Assembly (NCBI GenBank): GCA_963675665.1
Contig: OY776510.1
Location: forward strand, 1,248,001 to 1,312,000
From: Spirochaetia bacterium
Lineage (GTDB): Bacteria > Spirochaetota > Spirochaetia > UBA9216
Direction of reading: 5' to 3'
Length of the DNA stretch: 64,000 nt
Part shown: piece after piece, positions 39,576 through 62,573 of the stretch
Layout of the letters: each line of letters starts with the position of its first letter
Position numbering within the stretch: position 1 is the first letter of the stretch
Made by a program: the position numbers and the translations under genes
The notes under the pieces: model-generated
Told to the model about the DNA's origin: nothing
Seen by the model: the letters and a program-made list of their open reading frames with translations, nothing else
The model's database searches: none

Positions 39576-40541
39576 ATGTCAATTCCAAAAGCGAAACTAT
39601 CAGATCTATATAAGAAATTAGTTCTTTGTAGAGAATTCGAGAATGTGACAATAAAGCTTTTTAAGAATAATGAGCTTCCGGGTTTCCTGCATTCCCAGTT
39701 AGGACAGGAAGCAATACCTGTCGGCGTATCGGCCTGTTTGAAAGATGGAGATTTTGTACAGCCGACCCACCGGGGACATGCAGATATGGTTAGCAAAGGT
39801 ATGGATGTAAAAAGAATGATGGCTGAATTATTTGCCAAAAAAACCGGCTATAATCACGGAAAGGGCGGCTCAATGCATATGGCGAGTGTATCGGAAGGCG
39901 TTTTAGGCGCAACAGGTATTGTCGGAAGCGGGCCTGTTATTTCCATAGGCGTAGCATTGGGTTTAATGATGAAGAAAACTGATAATGTGATTATCAGCTT
40001 CTTCGGCGACGGGGCCACGAACGAGGGAAGCGTCCATGAAGCGATCAGTATGGCTGCGGTATGGAAACTTCCCATAGTGTTTGTAATTCAGAACAATCAG
40101 TTTGCCGAATCAACCCCCAGAAAAGATCATCAGAAGGTTGAAGATCTCTCTTCACGTGCTGCAGGTTATGGTATTGAAGGGTATACCTGTGACGGAAATG
40201 ATGTTTTTTCCGTTTACGAAACAGCCGTAAAAGCTGTTGATAAGGCAAGAAAGGGAGAAGGGCCGTCAATTATAAATGCGGAAACTTACAGGATCCTCGG
40301 CCATTATGTGGGTGATCCCGGAACCGGTTACAGGGAAAAAGAAGAGGTAGAGGAAGCAAAGAAGCGGGATCCGGTTAAGAAATTTAAAGAGAATCTTATT
40401 AAGATGAAAGTGTTGACTGAAGCATCGGCAAAAAAGATTGAAGATGAAGTAGATGCACTTATGGAAGAAGCTGTTGCTTTTGGAAAGGAAAGCCCGGAGC
40501 CTCCTGTTGAGGATTTAACAGCCGATGTATACACTCTGTAA
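39576..40541 (+). CDS. TPP-dependent dehydrogenase E1 alpha (AcoA/PdhA-like)
   Basis: GQEA, THRGH, GKGGSMH, GDGATNEG, NNQFA, YRILGH. Confidence 0.94.
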   Translation: MSIPKAKLSDLYKKLVLCREFENVTIKLFKNNELPGFLHSQLGQEAIPVGVSACLKDGDFVQPTHRGHADMVSKGMDVKRMMAELFAKKTGYNHGKGGSMHMASVSEGVLGATGIVGSGPVISIGVALGLMMKKTDNVIISFFGDGATNEGSVHEAISMAAVWKLPIVFVIQNNQFAESTPRKDHQKVEDLSSRAAGYGIEGYTCDGNDVFSVYETAVKAVDKARKGEGPSIINAETYRILGHYVGDPGTGYREKEEVEEAKKRDPVKKFKENLIKMKVLTEASAKKIEDEVDALMEEAVAFGKESPEPPVEDLTADVYTL

Positions 40542-40579
40542 AAACATTTAGGAGGAATGATAAAAAGTCTTCATGAGCT

Positions 40580-40732
40580 GGTGAATTGATATACTGCCTT
40601 AACTTTAATTGAGGCAGTAAGGTTACTGTTCGACATTTTTACTGGTCCGCGAGACCGTTTAGGAGATTGAAGAGCCGTAACCGAAACATTCAATGGTCTG
40701 CGAGACCGGATAGGAGAATGGAACAATTCACC
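40580..40732 (+). ncRNA. Predicted bridge-RNA-like non-coding RNA in the IS110 left end
   Basis: Outer stem GGTGAATTG/CAATTCACC; hairpin TACTGCCTT...GAGGCAGTA; two modules with GGTC(C/T)GCGAGACC hairpins flanked by target- and donor-matching segments. Ends are approximate. Confidence 0.75.
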
Positions 40733-40767
40733 GTATAGGCACTGCTTCAAACTATTGGAGATAGAAC

Positions 40768-41880
40768 ATGAAGATGAGTATTGGCGTGGATCTTCACAAA
40801 ACGCAGTTTACAGTATGCCTTTTAAGTGAAGACCGAAAAATTGATCAATTGGGAATGTATCCGACCAGCGGAAATGGTTATGGAGCATTTCTGAAAATGC
40901 TGGATGAATATTGTGAAGAGGAATATGAGTTGAGAGCAGCGGTGGAAACAACCGGGAATGCCCGTTATTTCCGCAATAAACTGTTAAAGGCTGGAGTCGA
41001 AGTGGTTGTAGTGAATACTTTGAAATTCAAGGTAGTGAATGAATCTGTAAAAAAGACAGACAAACATGATGCACGCACCCTGGCGGAGTTTCTTGAGAAA
41101 GACATGCTGCCTGAATCGATATTATGTTCCCAAGAGAGTGAGGATATTCGAAGGGTGCTGAAATCCAGGTCGATACTGGTAAAATCTGTTGTGTCGTTAA
41201 AGAACCAGGTGCATGGCTTATTACTTGGTTATGGAATAGAGACCAAACGCGGACAGCTGCAGAGTAAAAAAGAAAGGCAGCGAATCCTGAACGGTCTCGA
41301 GGACCACGACTTTTACGGAAGCGCTGCCAAAACGGTAATACCGTTACTGGATATGATAGATAATCAGGCATCGCAAGTCAAGCAGCTTGAAAAGGTTTTG
41401 GCTGAGCTTGTGGAGGACGATGAAGATGTTGAGCTTCTGCAGACAATACCAGGCGTGGGTCTAATAACAGCAGCAACAGTAAGAGCCTATACAGACGATA
41501 TCGGCAGATATGATAGTGCGAAGAAATATGCAGCAAACGCCGGGCTTGTGCCATGGGTGCAGAACTCAAATATGACAATACATCATGGACATATAACAAA
41601 GCGTGGGCCTGTAGAACTGAGGACAGCCTTCGTACAGATGGTGATGGGAATGGTTCGTATGCAAAAGAAGACCGGGACGTACCGAATAATGACGAAGTAT
41701 GCAGCGATGAAGAAGCAGAAAGGCTCGGGTAAGAGTGTAATAGCTGCCGCCCGCAAGATGAGCACTTTGGTATATACAATTTTAAAAACCAGAGAGCCGT
41801 TTGATCCGATGAAAATGGCTTTTAGAAAAGAATACAGGGAAATGCAGGCAGCAGCATGGGAAGCTGTAATGGTCGGTTGA
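40768..41880 (+). CDS. IS110-family recombinase/transposase
   Basis: N-terminal DEDD RuvC-like domain (GVDLHK, VETTG, KTDKHDA); C-terminal LQTIPGVG, AGLVP..QNS (putative catalytic Ser), ITKRG. Confidence 0.96.
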   Translation: MKMSIGVDLHKTQFTVCLLSEDRKIDQLGMYPTSGNGYGAFLKMLDEYCEEEYELRAAVETTGNARYFRNKLLKAGVEVVVVNTLKFKVVNESVKKTDKHDARTLAEFLEKDMLPESILCSQESEDIRRVLKSRSILVKSVVSLKNQVHGLLLGYGIETKRGQLQSKKERQRILNGLEDHDFYGSAAKTVIPLLDMIDNQASQVKQLEKVLAELVEDDEDVELLQTIPGVGLITAATVRAYTDDIGRYDSAKKYAANAGLVPWVQNSNMTIHHGHITKRGPVELRTAFVQMVMGMVRMQKKTGTYRIMTKYAAMKKQKGSGKSVIAAARKMSTLVYTILKTREPFDPMKMAFRKEYREMQAAAWEAVMVG

Positions 41881-41942
41881 TATCCGACCAGATCATAAGC
41901 TTATATTTTTAGCTTGTGGTTGACTTTTTATAGGAGAGAAAA

Positions 41943-42920
41943 ATGGCAATAATTACATATAAGGACGCAATTCGGGATGCACAGCAGGAAGAAATGAAAA
42001 AAGATGAGAGCATTTACCTGCTGGGAGAAGATATCGCTCAATTCGGCGGCAGTTATAAGACCACTGCCGGGCTTTATGATGAATTCGGCGCGGAAAGGGT
42101 TAGAAACACTCCGTTATCGGAAATGGGGATTATCGGGTGTGCTCTTGGTTCGGCAATGATAGGGATGCGTCCGGTAGCTGAGATTATGTATATAGATTTT
42201 ACAGCCTGCTGTATGTCGCAGATTGTAAATGAAGTTGCAAAAACAAAATACATGTATGCAGGACAGGTTAATATTCCGATGGTAATCCGAACACAGGGCG
42301 GGGCGGGAAGAGCTTCGGCGGCGCAACATGCCCAGAGCCTGGAAGCCTGGTTCACGCATGTTCCGGGATTATATGTCGTGATGCCGTCTACCCCCTATGA
42401 TGCCAAAGGGCTTCTTAAAACTGCAATTCGTGATGAGAACCCTGTTCTGTTTATAGAGCATAAACTTCTATATAATACCAAGGGAGAAGTTCCGGAAGAA
42501 GAATATACTATTCCGCTGGGGAAAGCAGACATTAAAAGGAAAGGGGATGATGTTACAATTATTACCTGGTCAAGATGTGTTGATTTTTCCCTGAAAGCGG
42601 CAGAAGATTTGGCAAAGGAAGGCGTAAGCGCAGAAGTAATAGATTTAAGAAGTCTGAAGCCTCTGGATGAAGAAACTTTTCTTCAGTCTGTTGAAAAGAC
42701 AGGTCGTGTTGTTATTGTGCATGAAGCCTGTAAAAACAGCGGTTTTGGAGCGGAAATCACCGCCATTATTAATGAAAAGGCATTTGATGCTCTGGATGCA
42801 CCGATTGAAAGAGTTGCCGGTCTGGATGTTCCGATGCCGTTTAATCCTAATCTCGAAAAATTGAATATACCAGATAAGGACAAAATTATTAAAGCTGTAA
42901 ATAAGGTGCTAAACAGGTAG
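41943..42920 (+). CDS. TPP-dependent dehydrogenase E1 beta (AcoB/PdhB-like)
   Basis: GEDI, RVRNTPLSE, AQHAQSLE, DLRSLKPLD. Confidence 0.94.
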   Translation: MAIITYKDAIRDAQQEEMKKDESIYLLGEDIAQFGGSYKTTAGLYDEFGAERVRNTPLSEMGIIGCALGSAMIGMRPVAEIMYIDFTACCMSQIVNEVAKTKYMYAGQVNIPMVIRTQGGAGRASAAQHAQSLEAWFTHVPGLYVVMPSTPYDAKGLLKTAIRDENPVLFIEHKLLYNTKGEVPEEEYTIPLGKADIKRKGDDVTIITWSRCVDFSLKAAEDLAKEGVSAEVIDLRSLKPLDEETFLQSVEKTGRVVIVHEACKNSGFGAEITAIINEKAFDALDAPIERVAGLDVPMPFNPNLEKLNIPDKDKIIKAVNKVLNR

Positions 42921-49005: not shown

Positions 49006-49033
49006 GAGGAATGATAAAAAGTCTTCATGAGCT

Positions 49034-49186
49034 GGTGAATTGATATACTGCCTTAACTTTAATTGAGGCAGTAAGGTTACTGTTCGACATTTTTACTGGT
49101 CCGCGAGACCGTTTAGGAGATTGAAGAGCCGTAACCGAAACATTCAATGGTCTGCGAGACCGGATAGGAGAATGGAACAATTCACC
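49034..49186 (+). ncRNA. Predicted bridge-RNA-like non-coding RNA, copy 2
   Basis: Same as 40580-40732. Confidence 0.75.
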
Positions 49187-49221
49187 GTATAGGCACTGCT
49201 TCAAACTATTGGAGATAGAAC

Positions 49222-50334
49222 ATGAAGATGAGTATTGGCGTGGATCTTCACAAAACGCAGTTTACAGTATGCCTTTTAAGTGAAGACCGAAAAATTGATC
49301 AATTGGGAATGTATCCGACCAGCGGAAATGGTTATGGAGCATTTCTGAAAATGCTGGATGAATATTGTGAAGAGGAATATGAGTTGAGAGCAGCGGTGGA
49401 AACAACCGGGAATGCCCGTTATTTCCGCAATAAACTGTTAAAGGCTGGAGTCGAAGTGGTTGTAGTGAATACTTTGAAATTCAAGGTAGTGAATGAATCT
49501 GTAAAAAAGACAGACAAACATGATGCACGCACCCTGGCGGAGTTTCTTGAGAAAGACATGCTGCCTGAATCGATATTATGTTCCCAAGAGAGTGAGGATA
49601 TTCGAAGGGTGCTGAAATCCAGGTCGATACTGGTAAAATCTGTTGTGTCGTTAAAGAACCAGGTGCATGGCTTATTACTTGGTTATGGAATAGAGACCAA
49701 ACGCGGACAGCTGCAGAGTAAAAAAGAAAGGCAGCGAATCCTGAACGGTCTCGAGGACCACGACTTTTACGGAAGCGCTGCCAAAACGGTAATACCGTTA
49801 CTGGATATGATAGATAATCAGGCATCGCAAGTCAAGCAGCTTGAAAAGGTTTTGGCTGAGCTTGTGGAGGACGATGAAGATGTTGAGCTTCTGCAGACAA
49901 TACCAGGCGTGGGTCTAATAACAGCAGCAACAGTAAGAGCCTATACAGACGATATCGGCAGATATGATAGTGCGAAGAAATATGCAGCAAACGCCGGGCT
50001 TGTGCCATGGGTGCAGAACTCAAATATGACAATACATCATGGACATATAACAAAGCGTGGGCCTGTAGAACTGAGGACAGCCTTCGTACAGATGGTGATG
50101 GGAATGGTTCGTATGCAAAAGAAGACCGGGACGTACCGAATAATGACGAAGTATGCAGCGATGAAGAAGCAGAAAGGCTCGGGTAAGAGTGTAATAGCTG
50201 CCGCCCGCAAGATGAGCACTTTGGTATATACAATTTTAAAAACCAGAGAGCCGTTTGATCCGATGAAAATGGCTTTTAGAAAAGAATACAGGGAAATGCA
50301 GGCAGCAGCATGGGAAGCTGTAATGGTCGGTTGA
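49222..50334 (+). CDS. IS110-family recombinase/transposase, copy 2
   Basis: Translation identical to 40768-41880. Confidence 0.96.
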   Translation: MKMSIGVDLHKTQFTVCLLSEDRKIDQLGMYPTSGNGYGAFLKMLDEYCEEEYELRAAVETTGNARYFRNKLLKAGVEVVVVNTLKFKVVNESVKKTDKHDARTLAEFLEKDMLPESILCSQESEDIRRVLKSRSILVKSVVSLKNQVHGLLLGYGIETKRGQLQSKKERQRILNGLEDHDFYGSAAKTVIPLLDMIDNQASQVKQLEKVLAELVEDDEDVELLQTIPGVGLITAATVRAYTDDIGRYDSAKKYAANAGLVPWVQNSNMTIHHGHITKRGPVELRTAFVQMVMGMVRMQKKTGTYRIMTKYAAMKKQKGSGKSVIAAARKMSTLVYTILKTREPFDPMKMAFRKEYREMQAAAWEAVMVG

Positions 50335-50396
50335 TATCCGACCAGATCATAAGCTTATATTTTTAGCTTGTGGTTGACTTTTTATAGGAGATTTAT

Positions 50397-61968: not shown

Positions 61969-62421
61969 TTACTTGACTTTGATGCTAATCTTTTTGGGCT
62001 CGGCTTTAGGTGCCTTGGGTATTACAAGTTCAAGCAGGCCGTTCTCAAAAGATGCCTCTATTTTTTCCTTGTTCACCTCTTTGGGCAGAACAAAGGTTCT
62101 TGTAAAGCTTCTTCCGCTTCTTTCATGCATGATGTAGCGCACGGATTCCTTTTCTTTCTTGTTGTCATTTTCAGCTTCCTTAACCTCGGATGCCGAAATT
62201 GTAAGAAGATTATTATCTACCTTGATTTCTACATCATCTTTGCCGTATCCGGGAAGTTCAACACTGAGCCCGAAATGATTTTCTTTTTCTACAACGTCCA
62301 CTGCCGGGTATCTTGCCGACTTAACTGATGCTGAAGTTCCGCCAAGCATCGATTCCATCATTCTGTCCATCTCGTCGAATACGCTTACCCTTCTCGGTCT
62401 GTAGGTTGCTAATGTTGTCAT
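61969..62421 (-). CDS. Hsp20/alpha-crystallin small heat-shock protein
   Basis: PAVDV, ELPG, ER..SFTRTFVLP, ASFENGLL. Confidence 0.94.
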   Translation of the reverse strand: MTTLATYRPRRVSVFDEMDRMMESMLGGTSASVKSARYPAVDVVEKENHFGLSVELPGYGKDDVEIKVDNNLLTISASEVKEAENDNKKEKESVRYIMHERSGRSFTRTFVLPKEVNKEKIEASFENGLLELVIPKAPKAEPKKISIKVK

Positions 62422-62573
62422 ATCATTACTCCTTATAACCTTCCGCCATGGAAGGTGGTTTGTGAGGTGAAGTTTTCAAACAAAGTTTGAAAACTTCCAA
62501 ATAATAAAAAGTCATGGAGGACTTTTTATTATTACTCCTGTATAAAGTTAATTTTCTTTTACGCTTATATATA

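Follow-up and report, generated by a model that had tools for sequence, protein, structure and literature searches.

A bridge or seek RNA, a kind of molecule known since 2024, is to be expected in any element of the IS110 family of insertion sequences (IS). Here we describe an IS110-family element, and the RNA that its left end probably encodes, in a window of 64,000 nucleotides (nt) taken from contig OY776510.1 (positions 1,248,001 to 1,312,000, forward strand) of the Spirochaetia bacterium assembly GCA_963675665.1. All coordinates below are positions in this window. In IS621, according to the portions of Durrant 2024 (PMC11208160) and Hiraizumi 2024 (PMC11208158) on which we rely, a recombinase with DEDD and Ser catalytic residues works with a bridge RNA that is encoded in the long left end, 5' of the gene, and in which a 5' stem-loop is followed by the target loop and then the donor loop, both of which read the two DNA strands around a shared 2-nt core; a sigma-70-type promoter is divided across the circle junction. 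For the IS1111-type seekRNAs of ISEc11, ISKpn4 and ISPa11, the part of Siddiquee 2024 (PMC11187229) used here describes the complement of the top strand as coming first, and the reverse order in the IS110-type ISEc21.

The element at our locus occupies 40555-41936 on the + strand (1382 bp, with the shared AGGAG assigned to the right end) and resembles both systems, as far as these partial sources describe them. With IS621 it shares the DEDD and Ser recombinase, an RNA encoded in a long left end upstream of the gene, the same succession of 5' stem-loop, target loop and donor loop, loops that would read both strands around a shared 2-nt core and a candidate promoter that would likewise be divided across the circle junction. 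It differs from IS621 in the guide order, which is reversed in both loops (the top-strand complement, for the right half, comes first and the 7-nt bottom-strand complement, for the left half, second), in the likely core, AG on the gene-sense strand here and CT in IS621, in the presence of a 10-bp subterminal inverted repeat, and in that the protein similarity is significant in the Tnp domain only. The guide order is instead the one of the IS1111-type seekRNAs, with which the element also shares subterminal inverted repeats, 7 left and 3 right bases outside them when the AG core is counted to the left (the rule given in PMC11187229) and a promoter predicted to form when the ends are joined. Unlike nearly all IS1111 members in that account, however, it has its non-coding region upstream and not downstream of the transposase (the IS1111 relative ISMtsp17 is mentioned there as a rare exception with an upstream region), its 10-bp repeat is 1 bp under the usual range of 11-13 and its protein has 370 amino acids as against 330-350. 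The likeness to IS1111 is one of guide order and repeats.

We read the left end as encoding a bridge (seek) RNA of ~160 nt, in + sense, whose target loop and donor loop guide the element to ribosome-binding sites, and put the probability of this reading at about 0.88. The kind of RNA is already known and the element adds a member to it. The original prediction, made from the letters of the window, had proposed a bridge-RNA-like left end with target and donor loops, to be checked by folding and by covariation among homologs, and the covariation described below bears it out. The strings on which it was built are all in place: GGTGAATTG at 40580-88, CAATTCACC at 40724-32, the hairpin at 40592-40619, CATTTTT at 40634-40 and TTTAGGAGA at 40658-66, and in the donor module CATTC at 40687-91, ATAGGAG at 40710-16 and GAATG at 40716-20.

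The genome contains 15 copies of the element, each of 1382 bp and with a C/T single nucleotide polymorphism at 41889 as the sole difference; because all copies have this length and are near-identical, the limits 40555-41936 are directly supported. A second copy in the window, at 49009-50390, is identical and lies between TATTTTTAGGAG on the left and ATTTATATG on the right, and the ATG behind it starts an open reading frame (ORF) of 461 codons. The left subterminal inverted repeat, ATAAAAAGTC at 40560-40569, is the exact reverse complement of its 10-bp partner GACTTTTTAT at 41922-41931, leaving five bases outside on each side, or 7 left and 3 right if the AG core is put on the left. The non-coding ends measure 213 bp on the left and 56 bp on the right. 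Contigs assembled from four public short-read runs stop at 40550 and 41936, with a depth there ~16x that of the flanks, which is compatible with the copy number, some of these runs being possibly the assembly data of the genome itself. Neither an empty site nor a circle junction was found in the contigs of the four runs, which end at the repeat borders.

Structure of the predicted left-end RNA and covariation of its guides

Homologous loci were gathered from genomes (80) and metagenomes (80) and added to the 15 own copies. A recognisable left end was present in 142 loci and missing from 5 loci of genomes and 10 of metagenomes. Among the 142 there are 95 distinct left ends and 138 distinct insertion sites; 17 distant loci from Lentisphaeria, Victivallales and Clostridia (32-41% identity), together with locus L076, were kept outside the guide analysis. 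The relatives of the element come from spirochaete, Desulfobacterota and other genomes and from metagenomes, with 53-88% protein identity, and 94 homologous left ends entered the structure alignment.

The predicted RNA extends from 40573 to 40735 on the + strand, its 5' end being placed by the junction promoter and its 3' end by the closing stem. Folding of the + strand of 40566-40767 gave z = -4.27, and 0/200 shuffles folded as well. Run on the 94 left ends, RNAalifold predicts both the target module and the hairpin of the donor module. With closing stem and 5' hairpin added, the structure counts 39 pairs and 89.1% of its alignment cells are paired, compared with 25.6-42.1% when the partners are slid. 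Covariation of the structure was observed directly, 30 of the 39 pairs being changed on both sides, and none of 500 shuffles match the observed values. The closing stem (40580-40588, GGTGAATTG, with 40724-40732, CAATTCACC) has 8/9 pairs changed on both sides and the 5' stem-loop (40592-40619) 10/10, with 72.9% of cells paired in a gappy alignment. The target-binding module (40621-40682) comprises an outer stem (40621-26/40677-82), an inner stem (40629-33/40667-71) and a hairpin (40643-40657), and its helices (3-5) show compensatory changes and a pairing of 96-99%. In the hairpin of the donor module (40694-40708) 4/5 pairs are compensatory and 99.8% of cells paired. Both internal-loop modules are built on a GGUC-loop-GACC hairpin. 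The T that ends each 5' loop segment (40643 and 40694) supplies the U of its closing G.U pair and is hence not part of the guide. Three such G.U pairs are near-invariant (92/93, 92/93 and 93/93 sequences) and would be A.C on the opposite strand. Since the near-invariant G.U pairs, the fold scores and the junction promoter all agree, the RNA is assigned the same sense (+) as the transposase.

In each loop the 5' segment complements the + strand of the right half-site and the 3' segment is the same as the + strand of the left half-site. The proposal that it is the strand opposite the transposase gene which the guides read therefore holds only in part: in this RNA of + sense the 5' segments complement the + strand and the 3' segments pair with the - strand. 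In loop 2 the right-donor guide CATTC (40687-40691) is the complement of the right-donor bases GAATG (40555-40559), the first five bases of the element, and the two covary (guide columns -8 to -4). At the positions that vary, +2, +3 and +4, the 5' side of loop 2 was complementary to the element start in 96%, 93% and 95%, with a covariation excess of +28, +5 and +21 points, position +3 contributing little. Among the 31 left-end types that depart from GAATG/CATTC, 20 are compensated at 5/5 positions and most of the remaining ones at 4/5, several of those with G.U. The left-donor guide ATAGGAG (40710-40716) is near-invariant and is the same as the last seven bases of the element, that is, the left-donor bases plus core at 41930-41936; the right ends of the homologs compared finish identically.

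It had been noted at the outset that CATTC could instead pair with GAATG (40716-20) within the RNA, and CATTC might then be one strand of a stem that closes module 2, with the 3' side of loop 2 as the only one that reads DNA. This stem is drawn in the minimum-free-energy fold and 91.8% of the cells can pair, but no pair has changed on both sides (0 compensatory changes, 500/500 shuffles as good), and pairs 195-248 and 196-247 are broken in 22 and 16 of 93 sequences. Where CATTC has become CGTGC, CATAC, CGTTC, CATGC or CGTAC, moreover, the first five bases of the element have become the exact complement. CATTC tracks the element start, and we consider it improbable that the stem is its function, even if the stem may form in free RNA. 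The second reservation raised there, that the two 5' guides are 2 nt out of register with each other, describes a real offset.

In loop 1 the left-target guide TTAGGAG (40659-40665) is the same as the + strand of the left half-site and would pair with the - strand. Its covariation with the DNA is likewise a direct observation, made by comparing the eight bases before an invariant A-N-TG with the left flank at 124 sites with 30 distinct guides (14/138 sites were dropped for short flanks, an N or an unparsable guide), sites that share a guide within a genome being weighted per distinct guide. Guide and flank were identical in 99/124 sites at position -7, 117/124 at -6 and 121/124 at -5, with a weighted excess over expectation of +54, +48 and +35 points, and the identities at -8 to -5 reached 376/496 against a permutation null of 243 (standard deviation 8), a value reached by 0/2000 permutations. 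At -8 there was no covariation (39/124 identical, +2 points over expectation) and the A trailing the 3' guide is invariant in both loops, which reduces to 7 nt (-7 to -1) a guide originally taken to have 9. TTTAGGAGA does match both window sites 9/9, because their left flanks end in TTTAGGAG and an A follows on the right, and CATTTTT matches site 1 at 7/7 and site 2 at 4/7 positions, as first reported. The A-N after AGGAG resembles, by eye, a handshake guide in both loops, its invariant A not being complementary to the donor base of the IS621 rule. The family has also retargeted itself naturally: elements at CGGAG, CAGAG and GGGAG sites have CGGAG, CAGAG and GGGAG in their loop-1 guide.

The right-target guide CATTTTTAC (40634-40642) is complementary to the + strand up to and including the start codon of the target gene. 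Among the homologs the CAT of the 5' side of loop 1 is near-invariant and the next three bases track the three bases before the start codon, with +11, +22 and +15 points on the diagonal anchored at ATG (21/138 sites had less than 12 nt of right flank). Over the first 8 bases of the right flank, the retargeted homologs L155, L168 and L040 have 5 (plus one G.U), 7 and 7 Watson-Crick matches, and the matches of retargeted elements extend to the core, that of L040 reaching 9/10 with the two core bases included. In a register scan anchored at the core, offsets 0, 1 and 2 all lie above the null (z = 4.0, 4.4 and 4.1). At the common spacing of 6 nt the RNA must have one base less than the DNA from core to ATG, and L040, L155 and L168 pair gap-free. 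The first internal loop thus covaries with both halves of the target, strongly with the left and significantly but modestly with the right.

These loops bear on the reading of the left end as nothing but a structured 5' leader of the transposase mRNA that controls translation or stability, in which the likeness to the flanks would come from shared low-complexity sequence, Shine-Dalgarno-like and rich in A/T. AGGAG-like strings are indeed common, the transposase has its own Shine-Dalgarno-like TGGAGA upstream of its ATG and the right-flank signal is weak. A leader, however, has no reason to track DNA beyond the element, and changes in the flank at -7, -6 and -5 are accompanied by changes in the loop, the shifts to CGGAG, GGGAG and CAGAG among them, just as the 5' side of loop 2 follows the first bases of the element in 20 fully compensated types. 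A leader of this sort is very unlikely to be the explanation. An origin of the functional RNA from the - strand, one sense that the original wording on the opposite strand allows, is hardly credible, for although this strand folds better than most shuffles (z = -2.14, 7/200 as good) and has a weak promoter-like site at 40585-40557, the + strand fold is stronger, the G.U pairs of 92/93, 92/93 and 93/93 sequences would become A.C and the 5' ends of the guides would face the core, which in IS621 lies at the guide 3' ends according to the pairings taken from part of Hiraizumi 2024 (PMC11208158).

Several observations weigh against a guide RNA that directs the element to ribosome-binding sites. As left-donor guide and right end alike are near-invariant (ATAGGAG), that contact is one of identity and not of covariation. 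AGGAG is also almost invariant in guide and target, and readout by RNA and by protein are inseparable there, except at the covarying position -5. The guide in the window has T at -7, yet A stands at this position in 10/15 targets. On the 5' side of loop 1 the signal is modest, 122/388 matches against a null of 107.7 (standard deviation 4.1) that 1/2000 permutations reach, and the right-target guide has no constant register to the core: an offset of 1 nt fits best where the spacing is the common 6 nt, and one of 2 nt in L040, L155 and L168. Kinship among the left ends partly remains after the weighting. Finally, a scan of 40000-42500 with Rfam 15 at E up to 1 gave no match.

The ribosome-binding site as target

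The target consensus is a direct observation in the 15 copies, since AGGAG stands directly 5' of the element in 15/15 and an ATG follows 5-7 nt past it in 15/15, each opening an ORF of at least 93 codons. In the window the left target half-site TTAGGAG (-7 to -1, 40548-40554) is the Shine-Dalgarno sequence of the intergenic region that the element interrupts, its final AG being the likely crossover core, and the right half-site AGAAAAATG (41937-41945) ends in the start codon of an E1-beta-like gene. This copy divides a short spacer between ORFs 39576-40541 and 41943-42920 (the latter of 325 codons, with its ATG at 41943), which appear E1-alpha-like and E1-beta-like as read from the translations, not from a family search. 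Against the background of all 893 gene starts of the form AGGAG-N3-10-ATG in the genome, the occupied sites are biased: T stands at -6 in 13/15 (150/893 in the background), the spacing is 6 nt in 12/15 (269/893) and the 4 nt before the ATG contain on average 2.6 A, compared with 1.69 (resampling p = 0.00085).

At position -7 the targets in the own genome have A in 10/15 and T in 5/15. The T/A difference between target and donor, thought at first to be mirrored in the two loops, consequently applies only to the two window copies, the donor-like A being present in 10/15 targets. In practice the left target and the left donor are one sequence, and it is the right halves that distinguish target from donor.

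In the mechanism that we propose, the 3' side of loop 1 (TTAGGAG, 40659-65) would pair with the - strand of the left half-site, a Shine-Dalgarno sequence, and the 5' side (CATTTTTAC, 40634-42) with the + strand just before and through the start codon. Loop 2 would read the joined ends of the element, with CATTC pairing to GAATG and ATAGGAG matching the last seven bases, and the DEDD/Ser recombinase would exchange strands at the shared AG. We infer that the recombinase binds the RNA, and likewise where exactly the core lies and in which order the strands are exchanged. The element would in this way insert between ribosome-binding site and start codon, always co-oriented with the gene, and its right end would provide a new ribosome-binding site, TATAGGAG, at the original spacing. 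As the element ends in TATAGGAG, whose left-donor bases and core (ATAGGAG, 41930-41936) double as a replacement Shine-Dalgarno sequence, the downstream gene retains a ribosome-binding site at its original distance.

The target is a functional signal, ribosome-binding site plus start codon, and not a repeat or an arbitrary sequence, and its restoration by the right end suggests a low-cost insertion strategy with guaranteed read-through transcription. In the literature searched we found no report of IS110 or IS1111 elements aimed at Shine-Dalgarno or ribosome-binding sites, although the family may be listed in the supplementary tables to Durrant 2024 and to the 2026 COMPASS preprint (10.64898/2026.10.21.760802). 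The many independent retargeting events in this natural family give a clean covariation of guide and target, and the loop order of IS1111 in the left-end position of IS621 makes a useful comparison for asking why two geometries exist.

Recombinase, predicted expression and proposed lineage

The recombinase gene (40768-41880, + strand), the sole long ORF in the vicinity, encodes 370 amino acids with the Pfam domains DEDD_Tnp_IS110 (PF01548) and Transposase_20 (PF02371), and scores 216.8 bits with the NCBIfam model NF033542, 'IS110 family RNA-guided transposase', against a cut-off of 140. Its C-terminal Tnp domain aligns with the solved chains of IS621 (E = 5.6e-15) and ISCro4 (E = 7.2e-16), and in the 8wt6 alignment S267 is aligned to the Ser of the ESG motif. 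Putative catalytic residues by motif position and alignment are D8, E60, D98, D101 and S267, the catalytic residues of IS621 being those named in the part of Hiraizumi 2024 (PMC11208158) used here. The stretch 40555-41936 is an active-looking IS110-family insertion sequence. In a tblastn search against plasmids the protein had one close relative, on a plasmid of Thiospirochaeta perfilievii (76.6%), the rest being below 31% and annotated as 'IS110 family transposase', and a megablast of 40500-42000 against plasmids gave no match.

A -35-like hexamer, TTGACT (41920-41925), stands 11 nt from the right end and an extended -10-like motif, TG-n-TAAAAA (40558-40566), starts 4 nt into the left end. 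A circle junction would join them with a 17-nt spacer (11 nt from the right end and 6 nt from the left) and let transcription begin near 40573. The homologs compared have kept the two motifs, TTGAC being present in most of the listed right ends. In the integrated copy the promoter scan gave no promoter-like site on the + strand before the RNA, and the scan of 40450-42000 no terminator-like site. Transcription of the RNA would start at the circle-junction promoter or continue into the element from the host gene. Since the guides impose the orientation of the target gene, host read-through could express both RNA and transposase. In the integrated element the AGGAG of the target and the left end also make up AGGAG-GA-ATG, followed by a 10-codon frame with its stop TGA at 40588-90 (40558-40590), the translation of which is doubtful with a spacing of 2 nt between Shine-Dalgarno sequence and ATG.

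That the family is a distinct RNA-guided lineage, combining an upstream bridge RNA with the guide polarity and subterminal repeats of the IS1111 type, is a tentative proposal to which we give slightly less than even odds. If true, the element would always be co-transcribed with a host gene and would replace the ribosome-binding site that its insertion splits, and regeneration of the target by the right end would explain both tandem arrays and trans-mobilised repeats that deliver ribosome-binding sites to genes.

Short repeats and divergent relatives

The genome also contains a family of short repeats of ~100-160 bp, with three hairpins, that have both termini in common with the element, starting with GAATGATAAAA and finishing with T-N-N-GGAG. 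By blastn they amount to 37 segments, and by pattern to 20 well-formed units. GGAG stands before these units, and what comes after is a start codon (N5-8 ATG), a further unit or an entire element. Of the 15 full copies, three (L008, L013 and L014) are directly behind a short unit, and two others (L007 and L015) have partial signatures. One unit lies in the window (62429-62534, - strand) before ORF 61969-62421, others are for example at G000:C1:2291903-2292008 and 3764695-3764802, and there are tandem arrays, such as one of three units spaced 101 bp. In the first hairpin the left subterminal repeat is paired with an inverted copy of itself, and its inner bases vary in concert from copy to copy.

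Left target and left donor being nearly the same sequence, every insertion recreates the target, which fits the tandem units and the short-repeat family in this genome. The short repeats would fit regeneration of the target by the right end together with mobilisation in trans. A comparable case is MITEPpu9/ISPpu9, which the part of PMC12288879 used here describes as a short non-autonomous unit with IS110-family ends, proposed to move in trans through the IS machinery. Like it, our units occur both adjoining the IS and alone; unlike it, as far as described there, they are of ~100-160 bp with three hairpins, have a ribosome-binding site as their right end and occur in tandem arrays. Together with the short repeats, the 15 copies account for many odd intergenic regions, a point of use in annotating this genome. 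In runs X1-X3 a contig joint leads from 40587 to 41917 via six other letters (side 20, four mismatches). It links the ~36 nt with which the element begins, in a diverged copy, to the ~20 nt with which it ends. This joint is probably a diverged short unit elsewhere in the genome and not a local deletion.

In the metagenome relatives L155, L162, L166, L168, L170, L171, L174, L176 and L177, AGGAG-N-ATG is no longer the target. Their targets are CACGGAG, CACAGAG or GGGAG and their right flanks share similar words (e.g. GCACAGAG), which suggests that this sub-group inserts into a repeated sequence; in L155 the start of a second element comes next. The distant loci L078-L089 and L092-L096 (Lentisphaeria, Victivallales and Clostridia, 32-41% protein identity) also end in ATCATAGGAG, mostly with an ATG within a few bases behind it, and have the upstream motifs GAAAGGAGATTAG and GTATAGGAGGATGG, indicating that targeting of ribosome-binding sites may reach well past the close family.

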